Source of the DNA: a virus
Direction: 5' to 3' (one strand)
Length of the DNA: 64,000 nucleotides
Virus record (IMG/VR): IMGVR_UViG_3300017909_003024
Coordinates: 1,991-65,990 of that record
This document shows, one piece after another, positions 58,876 through 64,000 of the stretch. Under the pieces are notes generated by a model. That model ran no database searches and was not told the DNA's origin. It worked only from the letters and a program-made list of their open reading frames with translations. Position 1 is the first letter of the stretch. Each line of letters starts with the position of its first letter. The position numbers and the translations under genes are program-made.

Positions 58876-59304
58876 TTATATTTCACCAATTACCTTTTGA
58901 TTATACGATGGGCTATCTAAATCAGTATCTTTTACAACAATTCTTTTTGTGTTTTCGTCATCATCCCAATAGTATGTAAATGGTTTCTTGTTGCTGTTGT
59001 AAGGTAAGTCCCCACTGAACAACATATCAGGCGTTCTACCATCACCTAGTGTTGTCTGACGATATGTAGTATTCAACAAACTATCAGATGGAACTTGTGG
59101 AAAATGTGGATCACCTGACATATGGTTGTCATAATAATATTGTAAAAATGTATCTTTTATTATTTCCATGTTTGATATGTTTACTTGGAATTGAGTTTCA
59201 GCAACCACCCTATGAAAAGTGGGGATAGCCGTTCCCAGCAATATCCCCACTAAAGCGATGGTTACAACCAACTCTATCAGAGTAAATCCGTTAGAGTTTT
59301 TCAT
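58876..59304 (-). CDS. Type IV pilin-like protein (class III signal peptide)
   Basis: MKNSNG^FTLIELVVTIALVGILLGTAIP, with a GGAG RBS. Confidence 0.88.
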   Translation of the reverse strand: MKNSNGFTLIELVVTIALVGILLGTAIPTFHRVVAETQFQVNISNMEIIKDTFLQYYYDNHMSGDPHFPQVPSDSLLNTTYRQTTLGDGRTPDMLFSGDLPYNSNKKPFTYYWDDDENTKRIVVKDTDLDSPSYNQKVIGEI

Positions 59305-59313
59305 AATCAACTC

Positions 59314-59739
59314 CTATAGACTAGCTCTTGATCCCAAAGTTCCCACAGCAGCATTATCGCCTGTTTGTGTTCCCTCATCGTATTGCCAAGACACACGAGT
59401 GTTGTCACTTCTTTGATGTGTGATTTTCTTACTAGTGGTATTGTATGTCCACTCTCCATCAACATCAGCATCATCTGTGTCTGTAGTGTGTCCAGCAGGT
59501 TTAGTATCTAGAGCATCGAATGGATTTGTAGGCCATGATTTCCTACCATTGTCCATTAGTTGTTCGACAGCATAAGTTTCTAAACCAGCTTTTATAGAGT
59601 TAATTACCGCATCTTCAGCAGCCTCATGGGCTTTTGTAACTGTTGTCATATATCTCGGTATGGCAACAGCAGCTAAGATACCTAAAATAATTGTAACCAT
59701 GATTAATTCGATTAATGTAAATCCTTTCTGGTTCAACAT
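59314..59739 (-). CDS. Type IV pilin-like protein (major pilin/MshA-like N-terminus)
   Basis: MLNQKG^FTLIELIMVTIILGILAAVAIPRY. Real start 59739 with GGAG RBS. Confidence 0.92.
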   Translation of the reverse strand: MLNQKGFTLIELIMVTIILGILAAVAIPRYMTTVTKAHEAAEDAVINSIKAGLETYAVEQLMDNGRKSWPTNPFDALDTKPAGHTTDTDDADVDGEWTYNTTSKKITHQRSDNTRVSWQYDEGTQTGDNAAVGTLGSRASL

Positions 59740-59749
59740 TTTAGTTCTC

Positions 59750-60376
59750 CTATGGTTGTAGTTTCTTGTTAAAGTTACTTGGGTTTTCCAAGTCAGCAAC
59801 ATAAAGAATTGGAGCATAAGAACCCGAACCACTTCCACCACCAGCGATTACCGCATAGATGTAATGACCATCCTGAAAAGGAGTCTTGATTGGGTTACCA
59901 CCAAATTCGTTTAAGAATTCTTCAGCGCCTGAGTAAACATCAAATGAACCATCTTTGTCATCATCTTCTGCAATAGAGATGTTATGACCAGTTGGAGCAG
60001 TTGCACCATTAGTAGTTGTACCAAATACAGAAGCCCACTTTGATCCTTCTTCATCATCGTAAGATGTGAAATTAGCCACACCAGCAATTAACAAAGAATC
60101 AGAAGCATATCCACCAACAGCAGCATCATACTTAGTTTGACCTGGAAATCTTCCACGACCTTCAGTTGTTACTTTAGAGTTATAGAAATTGTTAGCAGAT
60201 TTGACAATTTTGTCAATATCAGCCATCGTTTTCTTTTCTTTAGCACCTTCTCCAACACCTGAAAACTTAGGTGCAGCAGTGGTAGCAAGTGTTGCCATCA
60301 TCGCAGTTGTTACAGCAAATTCAGCAAGTGAGTTACCTTTTGTGCTCTTTAGATATCGTATTATTGATTTGAACAT
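59750..60376 (-). CDS. Atypical pilin-like protein
   Basis: Basic leader then KG^NSLAEFAVTTAMMATLATTAAPKF, keeping G-1, E5 and P22. AGGAG RBS. Confidence 0.7.
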   Translation of the reverse strand: MFKSIIRYLKSTKGNSLAEFAVTTAMMATLATTAAPKFSGVGEGAKEKKTMADIDKIVKSANNFYNSKVTTEGRGRFPGQTKYDAAVGGYASDSLLIAGVANFTSYDDEEGSKWASVFGTTTNGATAPTGHNISIAEDDDKDGSFDVYSGAEEFLNEFGGNPIKTPFQDGHYIYAVIAGGGSGSGSYAPILYVADLENPSNFNKKLQP

Positions 60377-60406
60377 TTCAGTTCTCCTATTTAGTTATTT
60401 ACCTAT

Positions 60407-60427
60407 ATTATACAAGAACTGTACCAA
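60407..60427 (-). promoter_or_regulatory. Putative sigma54 (-24/-12) promoter overlapping a TATAAT hexamer, upstream of the pilin genes
   Basis: Minus strand reads TTGGTACAGTTCTTGTATAAT, i.e. GG-N10-GT versus consensus TGGCAC-N5-TTGC. Confidence 0.5.
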
Positions 60428-61509: not shown

Positions 61510-61518
61510 AACAAACTC

Positions 61519-62166
61519 CTACTTGTCCTTCTTTCGTCTTTCAAGGTCTTTGATATCTTTTTGTAATTCTTTTATAGTTTCTTCATATTCATCTAATAAA
61601 TCATATACAGCATCCATATCTTCCTGCAGACCTCCGACTTGGTTTTTGTATTGTTCATATGACCGTGGCCAGTTGTGACCATCGGGTTTGGATGGATATT
61701 CATCCGTAAAAATTGACTCTATATCAATTTTTGGTAATTCTTTTGCTTCTTCAATCTCCCCTTGTAATGTATACCACATACCAATCAATGAGGCTAAACC
61801 TGTTCCAGCTGCTATCATTGTTTGTATAGATAATGTAAATTTTGTATCTAAAACCTTATCCTCTGATAATTCAACCGGTTCTTTTTTCTTTGGTTGCTCA
61901 ACAACAGGCGCTGGTTTTGGTTCTTCCTTTACTATTGGTTCTTGATGAATTTCTTCATGTTTATCTTCATGTTTTTCTGTATCAGTTGATGAGTTCATCA
62001 AAGCGTCTGTAATATCATCAAAAGAACAAAAACCCATCTCAACAAGAATTTCACCAATAGTCCCTTTACGACCTTTGACTTGTTCTGCTAGGGCTTTACT
62101 TAATTGTCTTTTTGTAATGATATCTGCATCACATAACAATTGTCCTAATTTGACTCCATCGCTCAT
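61519..62166 (-). CDS. Membrane protein with N-terminal MshEN-like (T2SSE_N) domain and C-terminal coiled coil
   Basis: KLGQLLCDADIITKRQLSKALAEQ followed by TIGEILVEMGFCS..DITDAL; one TM (IQTMIAAGTGLASLIGMWY); heptad C-terminus. Confidence 0.72.
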   Translation of the reverse strand: MSDGVKLGQLLCDADIITKRQLSKALAEQVKGRKGTIGEILVEMGFCSFDDITDALMNSSTDTEKHEDKHEEIHQEPIVKEEPKPAPVVEQPKKKEPVELSEDKVLDTKFTLSIQTMIAAGTGLASLIGMWYTLQGEIEEAKELPKIDIESIFTDEYPSKPDGHNWPRSYEQYKNQVGGLQEDMDAVYDLLDEYEETIKELQKDIKDLERRKKDK

Positions 62167-62172
62167 TTTTTA

Positions 62173-62775
62173 TTACTCATCATCGTAGAATGTTCCTTCA
62201 GGATCCATTCCGATTTCTATGTTATCAAATACCAATAATGCTATTTGTAATTCATCTCTGTATGGATTGTAGAACTGACCATTTACTATACCTGAAACTT
62301 TGTTATCTTCAACTTTTGTTATTTCAGCTTGACCAAAGTTTGTATAATCTTGACTACCAATGATTTCCAAATTGATTGTTTGTTCTCTGTTTTCTAAAGT
62401 ATCCTCTGCACCATAGTTCAAATACATACCAGAATCAATTAGGTTGTTATTATCTTCACCATCTTCATCATACCATATGGTAGCATAATGTTCTAATGTT
62501 GGTAAAACTCTACCGACTTCTCTTTGAAAGTGAAAAACCAATAGTTTCTTTATCTTACCATCCTCACCAAGTTCTTTCTTTCCAAAAGTTGTTATTGAAC
62601 CATAATAAGTATACGGATCTATTGGATCACCATTTACCCACATTTGCATATTTGGTTCTAACACCACTTCTTCTTCCACTCTATCATCTTCACAACTTGG
62701 TATTGCAAACATACCTACCATTAGAAGTGAACCGTAAATCATTCTTATCATATTGTATATTTCCTCGTGTTTCAT
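62173..62775 (-). CDS. Putative acidic lipoprotein
   Basis: Hydrophobic segment ending in AIPS-C followed by an acidic beta-rich domain. Confidence 0.55.
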   Translation of the reverse strand: MKHEEIYNMIRMIYGSLLMVGMFAIPSCEDDRVEEEVVLEPNMQMWVNGDPIDPYTYYGSITTFGKKELGEDGKIKKLLVFHFQREVGRVLPTLEHYATIWYDEDGEDNNNLIDSGMYLNYGAEDTLENREQTINLEIIGSQDYTNFGQAEITKVEDNKVSGIVNGQFYNPYRDELQIALLVFDNIEIGMDPEGTFYDDE

Positions 62776-62776
62776 T

Positions 62777-64000
62777 TTACCACCCCATAAATTGATAATT
62801 AATTCCTAACTTGATATCATATGCTGGTCTTTCCCAATAATACAAATATCGTCCTTCAGCAAATGTTCCAAGATTATCTTTTAGTTTTACTCCAAATATT
62901 GCTCCCATATCATAGTCATTCCAATCATGCCACATTGATTTCATATACATAAACTTGTGAGCAGGCATTCCTTTTTCCAAATGTTCTTGGTAATGAGCAG
63001 CATTATGATATGCATGTTTAGAATGTCCATAGTGTATCGGCATCCAATTACCCCAAGCATGTATCCACCAATTTTCATCATAGTGGTAGAAATCAACACC
63101 TAAGACCAAAGATGTTTCACTTTGATATCCCAAGTCTTTCTTCACACCACCAATATAATTTTCTAACATACCTGGAAAATGATAGATAAAATACTCTCTA
63201 TCTGTATAGGCAAATATCCTACCATTAGCATCTCTCCACAACCAATCGTGTCCCCAATACTCACCACCTTCATTCCAAAAAGGACCATCACCTTCTATTG
63301 GTACAAGCTCACCTGTCTCTACATCATATTCGTATAACTCTTGATGTATCCAATCTCCGTTCTCATCTTGCATTGTAGGATCAAACCACATATTATCATC
63401 AATACCAAAAGCATCTTCAGCAAACGCCCACCATTGACCTCTGTACCAAGTTGTATCCAATACCATGGCATCAAATCCATATACAGGATGTTGTCTGTGT
63501 TTAGCACCAACAGATATGTGAAACTTTTCATTCAGTGCTTCAGGTGTTAGATGTAATCTTATATCACCATGAACATAACTAATGTCTTCCAATCCTAATT
63601 CAGTCAAACCTATTTTAGCCATCGCCCATTCACCAATATATCTTACCCAATATTCTTGATTGACATATTCATTACCCCACTGTCTACCTTCTGACCATTT
63701 GATCAGGTATTCCCAACCTTTCACTGGACCAAATGTAGCACTTTCATTAGCATTTTGTTCTGAACCATCATACCAAGTTCCACCTTTACCAGCAGACTTT
63801 ACACCTCTCTTGGGTTCATACTGAAACCTACCTACTTTTCTTAATCCAAAAGATGTTTGAAAATCAGGTTCTAATTCCATTTCGGTTCTTTTAACTTCTA
63901 AAGCACCTGTAGATAACCCACCAACAATAGCAAATCTGTCATCTTGATATCGTGGAGCATTTAAACTGAAACTAGCATATGCTGTAGAATACTTTAAAAA
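62777..64000 (-). CDS. Partial (start beyond right edge) outer-membrane beta-barrel-like protein
   Basis: Frame is open from 64000 (FLKYSTAYASF...). Aromatic-rich alternating strands, C-terminal YDIKLGINYQF. Confidence 0.6.
   Translation of the reverse strand, partial: FLKYSTAYASFSLNAPRYQDDRFAIVGGLSTGALEVKRTEMELEPDFQTSFGLRKVGRFQYEPKRGVKSAGKGGTWYDGSEQNANESATFGPVKGWEYLIKWSEGRQWGNEYVNQEYWVRYIGEWAMAKIGLTELGLEDISYVHGDIRLHLTPEALNEKFHISVGAKHRQHPVYGFDAMVLDTTWYRGQWWAFAEDAFGIDDNMWFDPTMQDENGDWIHQELYEYDVETGELVPIEGDGPFWNEGGEYWGHDWLWRDANGRIFAYTDREYFIYHFPGMLENYIGGVKKDLGYQSETSLVLGVDFYHYDENWWIHAWGNWMPIHYGHSKHAYHNAAHYQEHLEKGMPAHKFMYMKSMWHDWNDYDMGAIFGVKLKDNLGTFAEGRYLYYWERPAYDIKLGINYQFMGW

Follow-up and report, generated by a model that had tools for sequence, protein, structure and literature searches.

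What use might a phage have for a run of genes whose products appear to be destined for the envelope of its host? The question is raised by positions 58876-64000 of a 64,000-nucleotide (nt) stretch of viral DNA (hereinafter the window), which corresponds to bases 1991-65990 of the 65,990-base IMG/VR virus record IMGVR_UViG_3300017909_003024. This island codes for a predicted outer-membrane (OM) β-barrel, a lipoprotein, a membrane protein with a c-di-GMP-receptor-like MshEN domain, a thioredoxin-like (Trx-like) protein, a Popeye-like protein with a cyclic-nucleotide-binding (CNB) domain and three pilin-like proteins. The original prediction, made from the sequence alone, took these eight co-oriented genes for a single system with which the phage may remodel the surface of the infected cell. 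Here we find that the arrangement and its phage origin hold, whereas its unity does not: the island is a composite of three separable units that move independently, namely a core of barrel, lipoprotein, MshEN and Trx-like genes (unit A), the Popeye-like gene (unit B) and a pilin operon (unit C). Our best reading, which we advance tentatively and with less than even confidence, is that of a late, second-messenger-informed envelope module tied to lysis or egress, alongside phage pilins that would be fed into the host type IV pilus or type II secretion system (T2SS).

Composite structure and phage origin of the island

The elements of the island are the following (aa, amino acids; TM, transmembrane):

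62777-64000, minus strand: predicted outer-membrane β-barrel (unit A); 407 aa in the window, with the N-terminal ~23 aa, including the signal peptide, beyond the contig end
62173-62775, minus strand: lipoprotein (unit A); 200 aa, invariant Cys28 followed by an acidic run (S-C-E-D)
61519-62166, minus strand: MshEN protein (unit A); 215 aa, bitopic, with an MshEN-type domain at residues 6-59, an acidic/Pro linker, a TM segment at about residues 112-134, a conserved periplasmic segment and a coiled coil
61135-61509, minus strand: Trx-like protein (unit A); 124 aa, exported thioredoxin fold with a signal peptide and without CxxC
60491-61135, minus strand: Popeye-like protein (unit B); 214 aa, three TM segments and a C-terminal CNB domain
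60411-60426, minus strand: promoter-like motif TGGTACAGTTCTTGTA (GG-N10-GT), in a 114-nt gap, 35 nt upstream of the p208 start
59750-60376, minus strand: p208, divergent pilin-like protein (unit C); 14-aa basic leader, G-1, N+1, E+5, P+22, F+24
59314-59739, minus strand: pilA2, prepilin/pseudopilin (unit C); 141 aa, GFTLIE; better conserved than the other pilins of the operon
58876-59310, minus strand: pilA1, prepilin (unit C); 144 aa, GFTLIE

All eight genes were confirmed at these positions as co-oriented and tightly packed. From the barrel to the Popeye-like gene, neighbors overlap or are separated by at most 9 nt, with the start of the Popeye-like gene sharing one base with the stop of the Trx-like gene; the 114-nt gap follows, beyond which the three pilin genes lie 3-10 nt apart. 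Simple hydropathy rules were applied in a strict form (19 residues, threshold of at least 1.6) and a looser variant: the latter flags 5/8 open reading frames (ORFs) of the island versus 4/37 outside it, and the former 3/8. Just under the threshold of the looser rule lie p208 and the TM segment of the MshEN protein, and the signal peptide of the barrel is off the window.

The composite nature of the island emerges from its relatives in IMG/VR, among which the barrel gene was recovered at 46 loci and the Popeye-like gene at no fewer than 100. In all 24 barrel-anchored contigs that extend for 3 kb or more downstream, the MshEN and Trx-like genes are present, as compared to 21 with the lipoprotein, 14 each with p208 and pilA2, 11 with pilA1 and eight with the Popeye-like gene. 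With at least 5.5 kb downstream (15 contigs), six carry pilins only, three the Popeye-like gene only, two both and four neither; an eight-gene set like that of the window is seen in just two of these 15, one of which is the same phage. These counts define the core as barrel-(lipoprotein)-MshEN-Trx, with the Popeye-like gene and the pilin operon coming and going around it, and they are at odds with the notion of one system.

The cellular contexts searched yielded no barrel, MshEN-TM or p208 protein, and homologues in cells exist for the Popeye-like gene alone. The barrel family comprises 674 clusters at 90% identity (215 representatives at 50%) and the C-terminal part of the MshEN protein 4317 clusters at 90% identity. 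These genes are thus very common in marine metagenomes, and yet tblastn of the barrel, Popeye-like and MshEN proteins against 50,697 GenBank phage records returned no match, as did blastn of the island against GenBank phages. The stretch itself is present in runs from 14 studies. A literature search yielded nothing relevant on phage MshEN proteins, phage Popeye/CNB proteins, CNB-holins or viral pilins as auxiliary genes, and the word 'pilin' is absent from the main texts of the Far-T4 papers PMC4360716 and PMC7198788, the supplements of which may list related genes. The individual parts of the locus belong to domain types already described, and there is a PHROG for phage pilins; the cluster itself is apparently undescribed in print.

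The record matches PHROGs for the portal, the large terminase (TerL), a primase and a RuvC-like resolvase. TerL is 55% identical to that of Flavobacterium phage vB_FspM_immuto and 54% to that of Microcystis phage Mel-JY01; the portal shows 50-54% identity to its counterparts in these two phages and 35% to that of Rhodothermus phage RM378, on which the definition of the 'Far-T4' group is based (PMC4360716, PMC7198788). By these sequence affinities we assign the record to a Far-T4-like myovirus of an abundant, uncultured marine group, with the locus being phage-borne. CheckV rates the record as 33% complete and linear. All long ORFs of the window are on the minus strand, a search of the window for tRNAs found none, and no terminal direct or inverted repeats were found in the contig, an artificial end-to-start join of which leaves the barrel N-terminus unrestored. 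Five relatives of 120-132 kb have CheckV completeness values of 66-72%, which implies whole genomes of about 175-200 kb. An MshEN protein with a C-terminus identical to that of the window copy is recorded on a 223,914-nt contig that may be a near-complete genome of the lineage.

The GC content of the island (0.34-0.355) is the same as that of its flanks, and in many contigs the module has the same neighbors, with the tail-fibre-like genes on one side and the zincin-RuvC-primase-SbcCD block on the other. The RuvC/primase/SbcCD block, which had been placed immediately next to the pilins, does adjoin the island with one gene intervening:

58444-58872, between the island and RuvC: zincin-like gene (HEIDH); MPTase-PolyVal at 22.8 bits, below the cut-off, and an 'anti-restriction' PHROG at 3.9e-5

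The TTG listed as the start of this gene would give it an additional, probably spurious hydrophobic N-terminus, and an ATG is present at 58836.

Relatives have 4.3-5 kb extra between pilA1 and the zincin-like gene, making the window version shorter, and the pilA1/zincin junction of the window was accordingly checked. Among the additional genes are a third canonical pilin, a TM protein and a secreted protein. Another IMG/VR contig, which shows full identity for ~5 kb, terminates within pilA1. Across the 58.4-59 kb interval, for which the question of read support had been raised, a 1634-nt contig of run X1 (which may be the source sample) covers 57964-59597 with zero differences, and the junction is further bridged by a contig of X3, which belongs to a different study (58736-58905, a single difference), and by an RNA-library contig (X17; 58808-59032) with 90% identity. 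An X6 contig that extends only 21 nt beyond the pilA1 junction was excluded from the bridging evidence. Taken together, the PHROG markers, the recurrence in IMG/VR, the level GC and the bridged junction establish the island as part of a phage genome and not a chimeric join to a host chromosome. The X17 contigs map to RuvC, the zincin-like gene, both pilA1 and pilA2 and, within p208, the 5′ end. Given that such libraries can contain DNA, this hints at transcription and no more; the contigs leave the bins 59105-59191 and 59627-60061 uncovered, which proves nothing.

Beyond the window, a 36-kb IMG/VR contig (L001), 100% identical over the overlap, supplies the missing end of the barrel gene. It had been suggested that a cyclase or pilus genes might be found past 64 kb; the 10 kb of L001 in this direction hold tail-fibre-like ORFs only, five of which lie directly upstream of unit A in the same orientation. 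Two adjacent paralogues upstream of the barrel (L001:8018-9892; 343 and 277 aa) both end in ITEVGL(Y/F)D..(D/E)L.(A/G)I... and presumably resemble the tail-collar/fibre N-terminal domains of other myoviruses; their homologues in contig L012 have no match in Pfam or PHROG.

The core genes, the Popeye-like gene and its lysis-type neighbors in relatives

The full-length barrel protein read from L001 has 430 aa, with a signal peptide and a C-terminus (...QFMGW) that ends in an aromatic residue. In an AF2 model built from 31 sequences (pLDDT 75, pTM 0.66, with pLDDT <50 at residues 80-115), ~14 long strands are seen, together with an insert that spans residues 196-312. The top Foldseek matches are all OM barrels, and VIA matches it to EstA (Z 14.8), KdgM (14.6), Tsx (13.8) and FapF (12.4). 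The model fits OM barrels but no particular family, with TM-scores of 0.2-0.3 (Foldseek, VIA), and the protein has no Pfam, PHROG, NCBIfam or PADLOC match. Based on the signal peptide, the closed antiparallel barrel of the model and the C-terminal aromatic residue, we predict an OM β-barrel; the fold originally called thus stands, and it is the copy in the window that is truncated where the contig stops. In L059, and also in L018, the barrel gene is followed in tandem by a paralogue (L059:7102-8352; 417 aa, 45% identity).

In an alignment of 27 relatives of the lipoprotein, C28 is invariant and preceded by S, A or N, and the hydrophobic leader and the acidic stretch after the Cys are conserved. 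The protein has no family match: its best match in the PDB (E 0.0098) is an unrelated enzyme, and among named ESM clusters the closest are lipoprotein families of Bacteroidota (0.92-0.93), a weak lead. The surface lipoprotein export signal (LES) of Bacteroidetes, as given in PMC5080379, is C-X-K-(D/E)2 or an S-D-D-type acidic run right after the Cys. The C-E-D-[DNT]-R-V-E-E of the phage lipoproteins is likewise acidic and resembles the LES but does not match it, being devoid of the polar/basic +2 residue.

The MshEN protein is recognized by the NCBIfam model NF053729 'c-di-GMP_motif, MshE-related' over residues 6-56 (46.8 bits vs. a cut-off of 38), and a profile of its family recovers PilF (1.9e-9), PilB (7.5e-7) and MshE (2.3e-3) from the PDB; Pfam T2SSE_N gives no match at E≤1. 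Each of the domain calls of the original prediction survived a test, with this one doing so via NCBIfam and the PDB profile instead of Pfam. A T2SSE ATPase is not fused to the domain, and the periplasmic motif EYPS.P.G.NWPRS.EQY is invariant in the family alignment. The MshEN pattern, as presented in PMC5013675, consists of two 24-residue motifs of the form [RKPN]hGxxhhxx[GAS]hhxxxxhxxxhxx[QNKRYWST] with a 5-residue spacer. Comparing the family alignment by eye with the relaxed pattern of that study, half-site I (K6-Q29) retains the basic residue along with L and G, the two Leu residues and the Gln, with two deviations (C12, D15).

A profile of the Trx-like family recovers TXNDC5 (1e-10) and thioredoxins (~1e-5) from the PDB; the Pfam Thioredoxin model scores 15.7 bits, below its cut-off of 23.5. 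At the active-site position, EWQE(Q/K) stands opposite WCGHC and is conserved in 20 relatives; the family also has a conserved cis-Pro-loop-like RN[FY]PS. Upstream of the unit, TATTTAT lies 36-45 nt before the barrel start in 12 of 28 relatives and, in the same phage (L001), at -37; it also precedes one tail-fibre-like gene (L001 7305).

Further small genes join the module in some relatives. A poly-lysine peptide of 64-65 aa, with a signal peptide and an amphipathic tail, lies between the barrel and the lipoprotein/MshEN genes in nine of them (L013:11297-11488, L016:2510-2704 and seven others); it has no family match and is missing from the window. In L013, two small 3-TM proteins (9613-9903, 97 aa; 12533-12796, 88 aa) are part of the module, the first just before the barrel and the other after the Trx-like gene; the 97-aa protein scores 22.6 bits with Heliorhodopsin, below the cut-off of 26.7.

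The Popeye-like protein exceeds the cut-offs of two Pfam models, PF00027 cNMP_binding (56.9 bits; cut-off 27.5) and PF04831 POPDC1-3 (53.9 bits; cut-off 28.1), and its hydropathy profile displays three hydrophobic segments. A profile of 25 relatives, across which the mean column identity is 79%, matches the CNB domains of PKG/PKA in the PDB at 1e-23 and that of PycTIR at 1.6e-8.

To characterize the neighborhood of this gene, all ORFs of 126 loci were clustered. A lysis-type gene (SLT, GH108 or holin-like) lies within two genes of the Popeye-like gene in 44 of 65 distinct contexts, with three main arrangements: directly after a TM-anchored SLT transglycosylase (29 contexts); flanked by a 2-TM protein and a GH108/PG_binding_3 endolysin; or after the Trx-like gene and before a 3-TM protein (holin). 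Holin-like genes also lie one to six genes from the core in ~9 barrel-anchored contigs. The window has its own copies of such genes:

1186-1599: holin, the window copy of the 3-TM neighbor; PHROG 3427 'holin' at 2.2e-26
1602-1919: 2-TM protein
14841-15317: GH108-like endolysin; 90% identical to a PF05838+PF09374 protein of contig L049

The pilin operon, its upstream motif and the host

Two of the three genes of unit C code for canonical prepilins. pilA2, which probably starts with the ATG at 59739 (the GTG listed as its start, at 59841, being an upstream extension), matches N_methyl (32.1 bits; cut-off 21.2), TIGR02532 (32.4 bits; cut-off 16.3) and PHROG 3433 'pilin' (6.8e-8), and the GspG model at 48.3 bits over residues 5-85, which is under the equivalog cut-off of 88.85. 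pilA1 matches N_methyl at 34.1 bits and TIGR02532 at 27.2 bits (cut-offs 21.2 and 16.3). The third, p208, has no Pfam, NCBIfam or PHROG match. Across 19 relatives, the N-terminal sequence G-[NQ]-[ST]-L-A-E-F-A-V-T-T-A-M-M-A-T-L-A-T-T-A-A-P-K-F is retained without exception; the closest ESM look-alikes after viral clusters are N_methyl clusters at 0.95, and a profile of the family matches PilA N-termini in 14/201 Bdellovibrionota genomes (E down to 1.2e-6) and in 0/301 of Bacteroidota. An AF2 model of p208 from 19 sequences (pLDDT 47) was too poor for a fold search.

In several relatives (L048, L049, L055, L058 and L004-L016), pilA1 is followed by one or two further canonical prepilins (131-156 aa), a TM protein of ~147 aa and a signal-peptide protein of 130-200 aa. 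Hence, a full operon can hold p208, three pilins and two more envelope proteins, and the version in the window is shorter.

The operon is preceded by a motif of the form TGGTAY-N5-TTGTA. Its sole match in the 64 kb is TGGTACAGTTCTTGTA, where 0.13 are expected, and of 20 distinct regions preceding p208, 17 contain the motif. The sigma-54 consensus is GG-N10-GC (-24/-12); TGGTACAGTTCTTGTA has the sigma-54-like GG and spacing, with GT instead of the consensus GC at -12. We consider the motif a putative sigma-54-like promoter, with a phage-specific promoter as the alternative. The motif also stands before a gene for a 158-aa protein that is Hsp20/alpha-crystallin-like by eye (L048:12030-12045, L049:12027-12042, L050:3386-3401). 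Its sharing by the pilin and Hsp20-like genes suggests a small regulon with a common promoter type.

The absence of pilus machinery, on which the original prediction had remarked for the window, extends to the whole record and to its five long relatives. In the record itself there is no T2SSE, Secretin or T2SSF match, the only related signal being a Peptidase_A24 match of 16.2 bits with five stops inside. In the relatives of 120-132 kb, PF01478, PF00437, PF00482 and PF00263 are above cut-off in 0/5, these records including our own being 33-72% complete; weak T2SSE matches of 14-16 bits occur in three of the five. GGDEF and Guanylate_cyc (class III cyclase) were likewise found in 0/5 of the long relatives. 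Given that neither pilus machinery nor a cyclase is found in the phage contigs, host enzymes would be needed both for pilin processing and for making any nucleotide ligand.

The leads to that host conflict. The nearest isolates infect Flavobacterium, Microcystis and Rhodothermus; together with the acidic run after the lipoprotein Cys and the weak ESM lipoprotein leads, they point to a member of Bacteroidota. PMC7198788 offers a homology-based prediction of Bacteroidetes hosts for marine Far-T4 phages. In turn, the closest cellular relatives of the Popeye-like gene are found in Bacteriovoracaceae. A 72-kb contig (L130) in a metagenome-assembled genome titled Candidatus Pelagibacter sp. TMED166 carries the barrel, MshEN, Trx-like and Popeye-like genes, followed by a zincin gene and a primase; by its gene content it is a phage contig of the same group binned with a bacterial genome, and hence only weak evidence for a host. 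Cyanobacteria and SAR11 are not known to carry rpoN and would be unlikely hosts if the sigma-54 reading is right.

Competing readings and comparison with known systems

What, then, might these units do? In our preferred reading, unit A would be a late-expressed envelope-spanning complex, with the barrel and the lipoprotein in the OM, the Trx fold in the periplasm and the bitopic protein in the inner membrane (IM), from where its cytoplasmic MshEN domain would read host c-di-GMP. Unit B would be a cNMP-regulated membrane protein acting as a functional partner of the holin/endolysin set, and A and B together would tie the envelope steps of lysis or egress (their timing or the OM step) to the second-messenger state of the host. 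The prepilins of unit C would be cleaved by the host prepilin peptidase and enter its type IV pilus/T2SS pathway, most likely disabling or re-purposing it. Ligand binding by the MshEN and CNB domains is plausible; like the protein locations, complex formation, expression timing and all functional consequences, we infer it from sequence. A bolder form of this proposal, which we regard as quite unlikely, has the timing and manner of lysis set by two host messengers: the Popeye-like protein would be a cNMP-gated holin/antiholin partner, the c-di-GMP-binding IM protein, linked via the redox-dead Trx fold to the lipoprotein and barrel, would form an envelope-spanning device replacing or controlling spanins, and pilins expressed from a sigma-54-type promoter would hijack the pilus/T2SS motor.

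Several observations weigh against the lysis-linked reading. In the MshEN domain, half-site II (T36-S59) is without the Arg and Gln and has two deviations (T36, C47), and the spacer is of 6 residues as opposed to the 5 of the published pattern, so that there are two deviations in each half. The CNB domain is similarly atypical: its cassette, GEMSFLTEK(S/P)ATA, is without the Arg that a canonical CNB phosphate-binding cassette carries. The closest cellular homologues of the Popeye-like gene (Bacteriovoracaceae, 44-59% identity) are located among lipA/lipB and other housekeeping genes. In the window, 43-59 kb separate the island from the holin-like genes and the GH108 endolysin, in contrast to the many relatives in which they adjoin it, and the link to lysis thus derives from the relatives; many of those with a lysis context are close kin, and 29 of the 44 contexts are of the SLT type. 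As for late expression, TATTTAT occurs five times in L001 versus 11 expected, a sigma-70 scan returned 30 sites versus 24.3 ± 4.2 expected and TATAAATA occurs 10 times versus 8.87 expected. As none of these region-wide scans is above chance, the promoter reading is carried only by position and conservation. With regard to the pilins, a prepilin peptidase is present in only 32 of 201 sampled Bacteroidota.

The sense favored by the original prediction was receptor masking or superinfection exclusion, whereby the barrel, the lipoprotein and the pilins remodel the surface against adsorption and the MshEN and cNMP domains couple this to host signaling. There are precedents, as phage lipoproteins and OM proteins that block receptors exist, as do phage proteins that switch off type IV pili. 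It also accords with the targeting of all products to the envelope, and the homology of MshEN to the N-domains of pilus ATPases, together with the pilins lying directly downstream in 14/24 contigs, makes a shared pilus-directed function plausible. Known exclusion factors, however, are single small proteins and usually early ones, as against four co-conserved proteins behind a late-type motif beside tail-fibre genes; the core is without pilins in 7/15 contigs and without both pilins and the Popeye-like gene in 4/15. Moreover, in relatives the Popeye-like gene and often the core stand beside holin or endolysin genes, which points to lysis or egress at least as much; we rate masking as unlikely. 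In another alternative, the tethered MshEN and CNB domains would be sponges that soak up c-di-GMP and cyclic mononucleotides (e.g., the cCMP/cUMP of Pycsar), thereby silencing host signaling or defense. The CNB domain does match those of Pycsar effectors (PADLOC PycTIR 9.7e-15, besides the PDB match noted above), both receptor proteins are without a recognizable output domain, and the ligands would have to be host-made, no cyclase being found in the phage contigs. Yet the far closer match of the CNB domain to eukaryotic PKG/PKA leaves no specific tie to Pycsar, and known phage sponges are soluble and abundant proteins, with no need for the conserved TM and periplasmic parts to which these domains are fused or for co-inheritance with the barrel, lipoprotein and Trx-like genes. 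We find the sponge reading improbable; a specific anti-Pycsar role was rejected on the grounds that PKG/PKA are matched far better than PycTIR.

Two further explanations are still less probable. The location of unit A directly downstream of five co-oriented tail-fibre-like ORFs, one of them likewise preceded by TATTTAT, might suggest that the unit, barrel included, codes for virion-associated proteins with a part in the structure or assembly of the tail or fibres, and not for proteins of the host envelope. This is very unlikely given the Sec signal peptide and C-terminal aromatic residue of the barrel, the lipobox of the lipoprotein, the signal peptide of the Trx-fold protein, the Z-scores of 12-15 with which OM barrels are the best matches of the barrel model, and the lack of a structural PHROG match for any unit A protein. 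Finally, an assembly artefact or recently captured host DNA devoid of a phage function might be suspected from the identical contig that ends inside pilA1 and from the 4.3-5 kb that relatives have in addition at the pilA1/zincin boundary. This possibility is largely refuted and close to negligible, as the GC is level, the flanks recur in many contigs, the junction is bridged in X1, X3 and X17, and the barrel, MshEN-TM and p208 proteins did not turn up in the cellular contexts searched.

If the receptor domains do bind their ligands, the locus would be a case of lytic phages reading both c-di-GMP and a cyclic mononucleotide via membrane proteins, and would make it possible to test how phages in the ocean adjust lysis or surface remodeling to the physiology of the host. 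A second test case is provided by the pilin operon, that of phage-supplied subunits for a host filament machine.

Among known systems, unit C is closest to the type IV pilins and T2SS pseudopilins (GspG/PilA/ComGC). pilA1 and pilA2 share with these the G|FTLIE motif, the hydrophobic α1-N and P22, and p208 keeps G-1, E+5, P+22 and the aromatic residue at +24. They differ in being encoded by a lytic phage without a peptidase, ATPase, platform protein or secretin, and p208 further differs in having N/Q at +1 and failing the Pfam model. The major pilins of the T4a class have a disulphide-bonded D-region; in contrast, there are zero cysteines in all three phage pilins.

Of the two receptor-like proteins, the first shares the tandem two-helix motif, with half-site I in the form K/R-L-G...L...L..Q, with the MshE/PilB/PilF ATPases and the NfrB-type glycosyltransferases (PMC5013675). 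Unlike those, it is without an ATPase or glycosyltransferase module, and its domain is instead fused to a TM helix and a periplasmic coiled coil. The second shares the three TM segments and the CNB domain with the POPDC proteins and their bacterial 3-TM cNMP homologues, both Pfam models being above cut-off and full-length cellular homologues being available; it differs from them in its presence in a phage, in its location among holin, SLT and GH108 genes in relatives and in the phosphate-binding cassette devoid of the canonical Arg. The CNB domain is also what it has in common with Pycsar effectors, the PADLOC matches to the PycTIR and PycC models being confined to their CNB portions. There is no match to the PycTM model and no Pycsar cyclase.

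Unit A as a whole can be compared to two kinds of envelope-spanning systems. The synthase-dependent exopolysaccharide exporters (Pel, alginate, cellulose, Nfr) combine an IM c-di-GMP receptor, an OM barrel and a lipoprotein. The same three kinds of components are present here, and the top Foldseek matches of the barrel include BcsC and a PgaA-type porin, with PelBC being matched by VIA at Z 10.1. The phage module differs in being without a glycosyltransferase or a polymer-modifying gene, and its barrel is closer to 12-stranded barrels.

The other comparison is with the two-component spanins (Rz/Rz1), which likewise pair an IM protein bearing a periplasmic coiled coil with an OM lipoprotein, the neighboring holins being a feature of the relatives only. 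Here, the i-spanin-like protein has a 110-aa cytoplasmic receptor domain, the lipoprotein is acidic and as long as 200 aa, and the gene order places the lipoprotein first. A further point that tells against a role in lysis is that this lipoprotein, the barrel and the Trx fold are without counterparts in known spanins, the likeness having been judged from topology. Lastly, the secreted poly-Lys peptide seen in the module of nine relatives recalls the cationic 'disruptin' of phage phiKT, as reported in bioRxiv 10.1101/515445.

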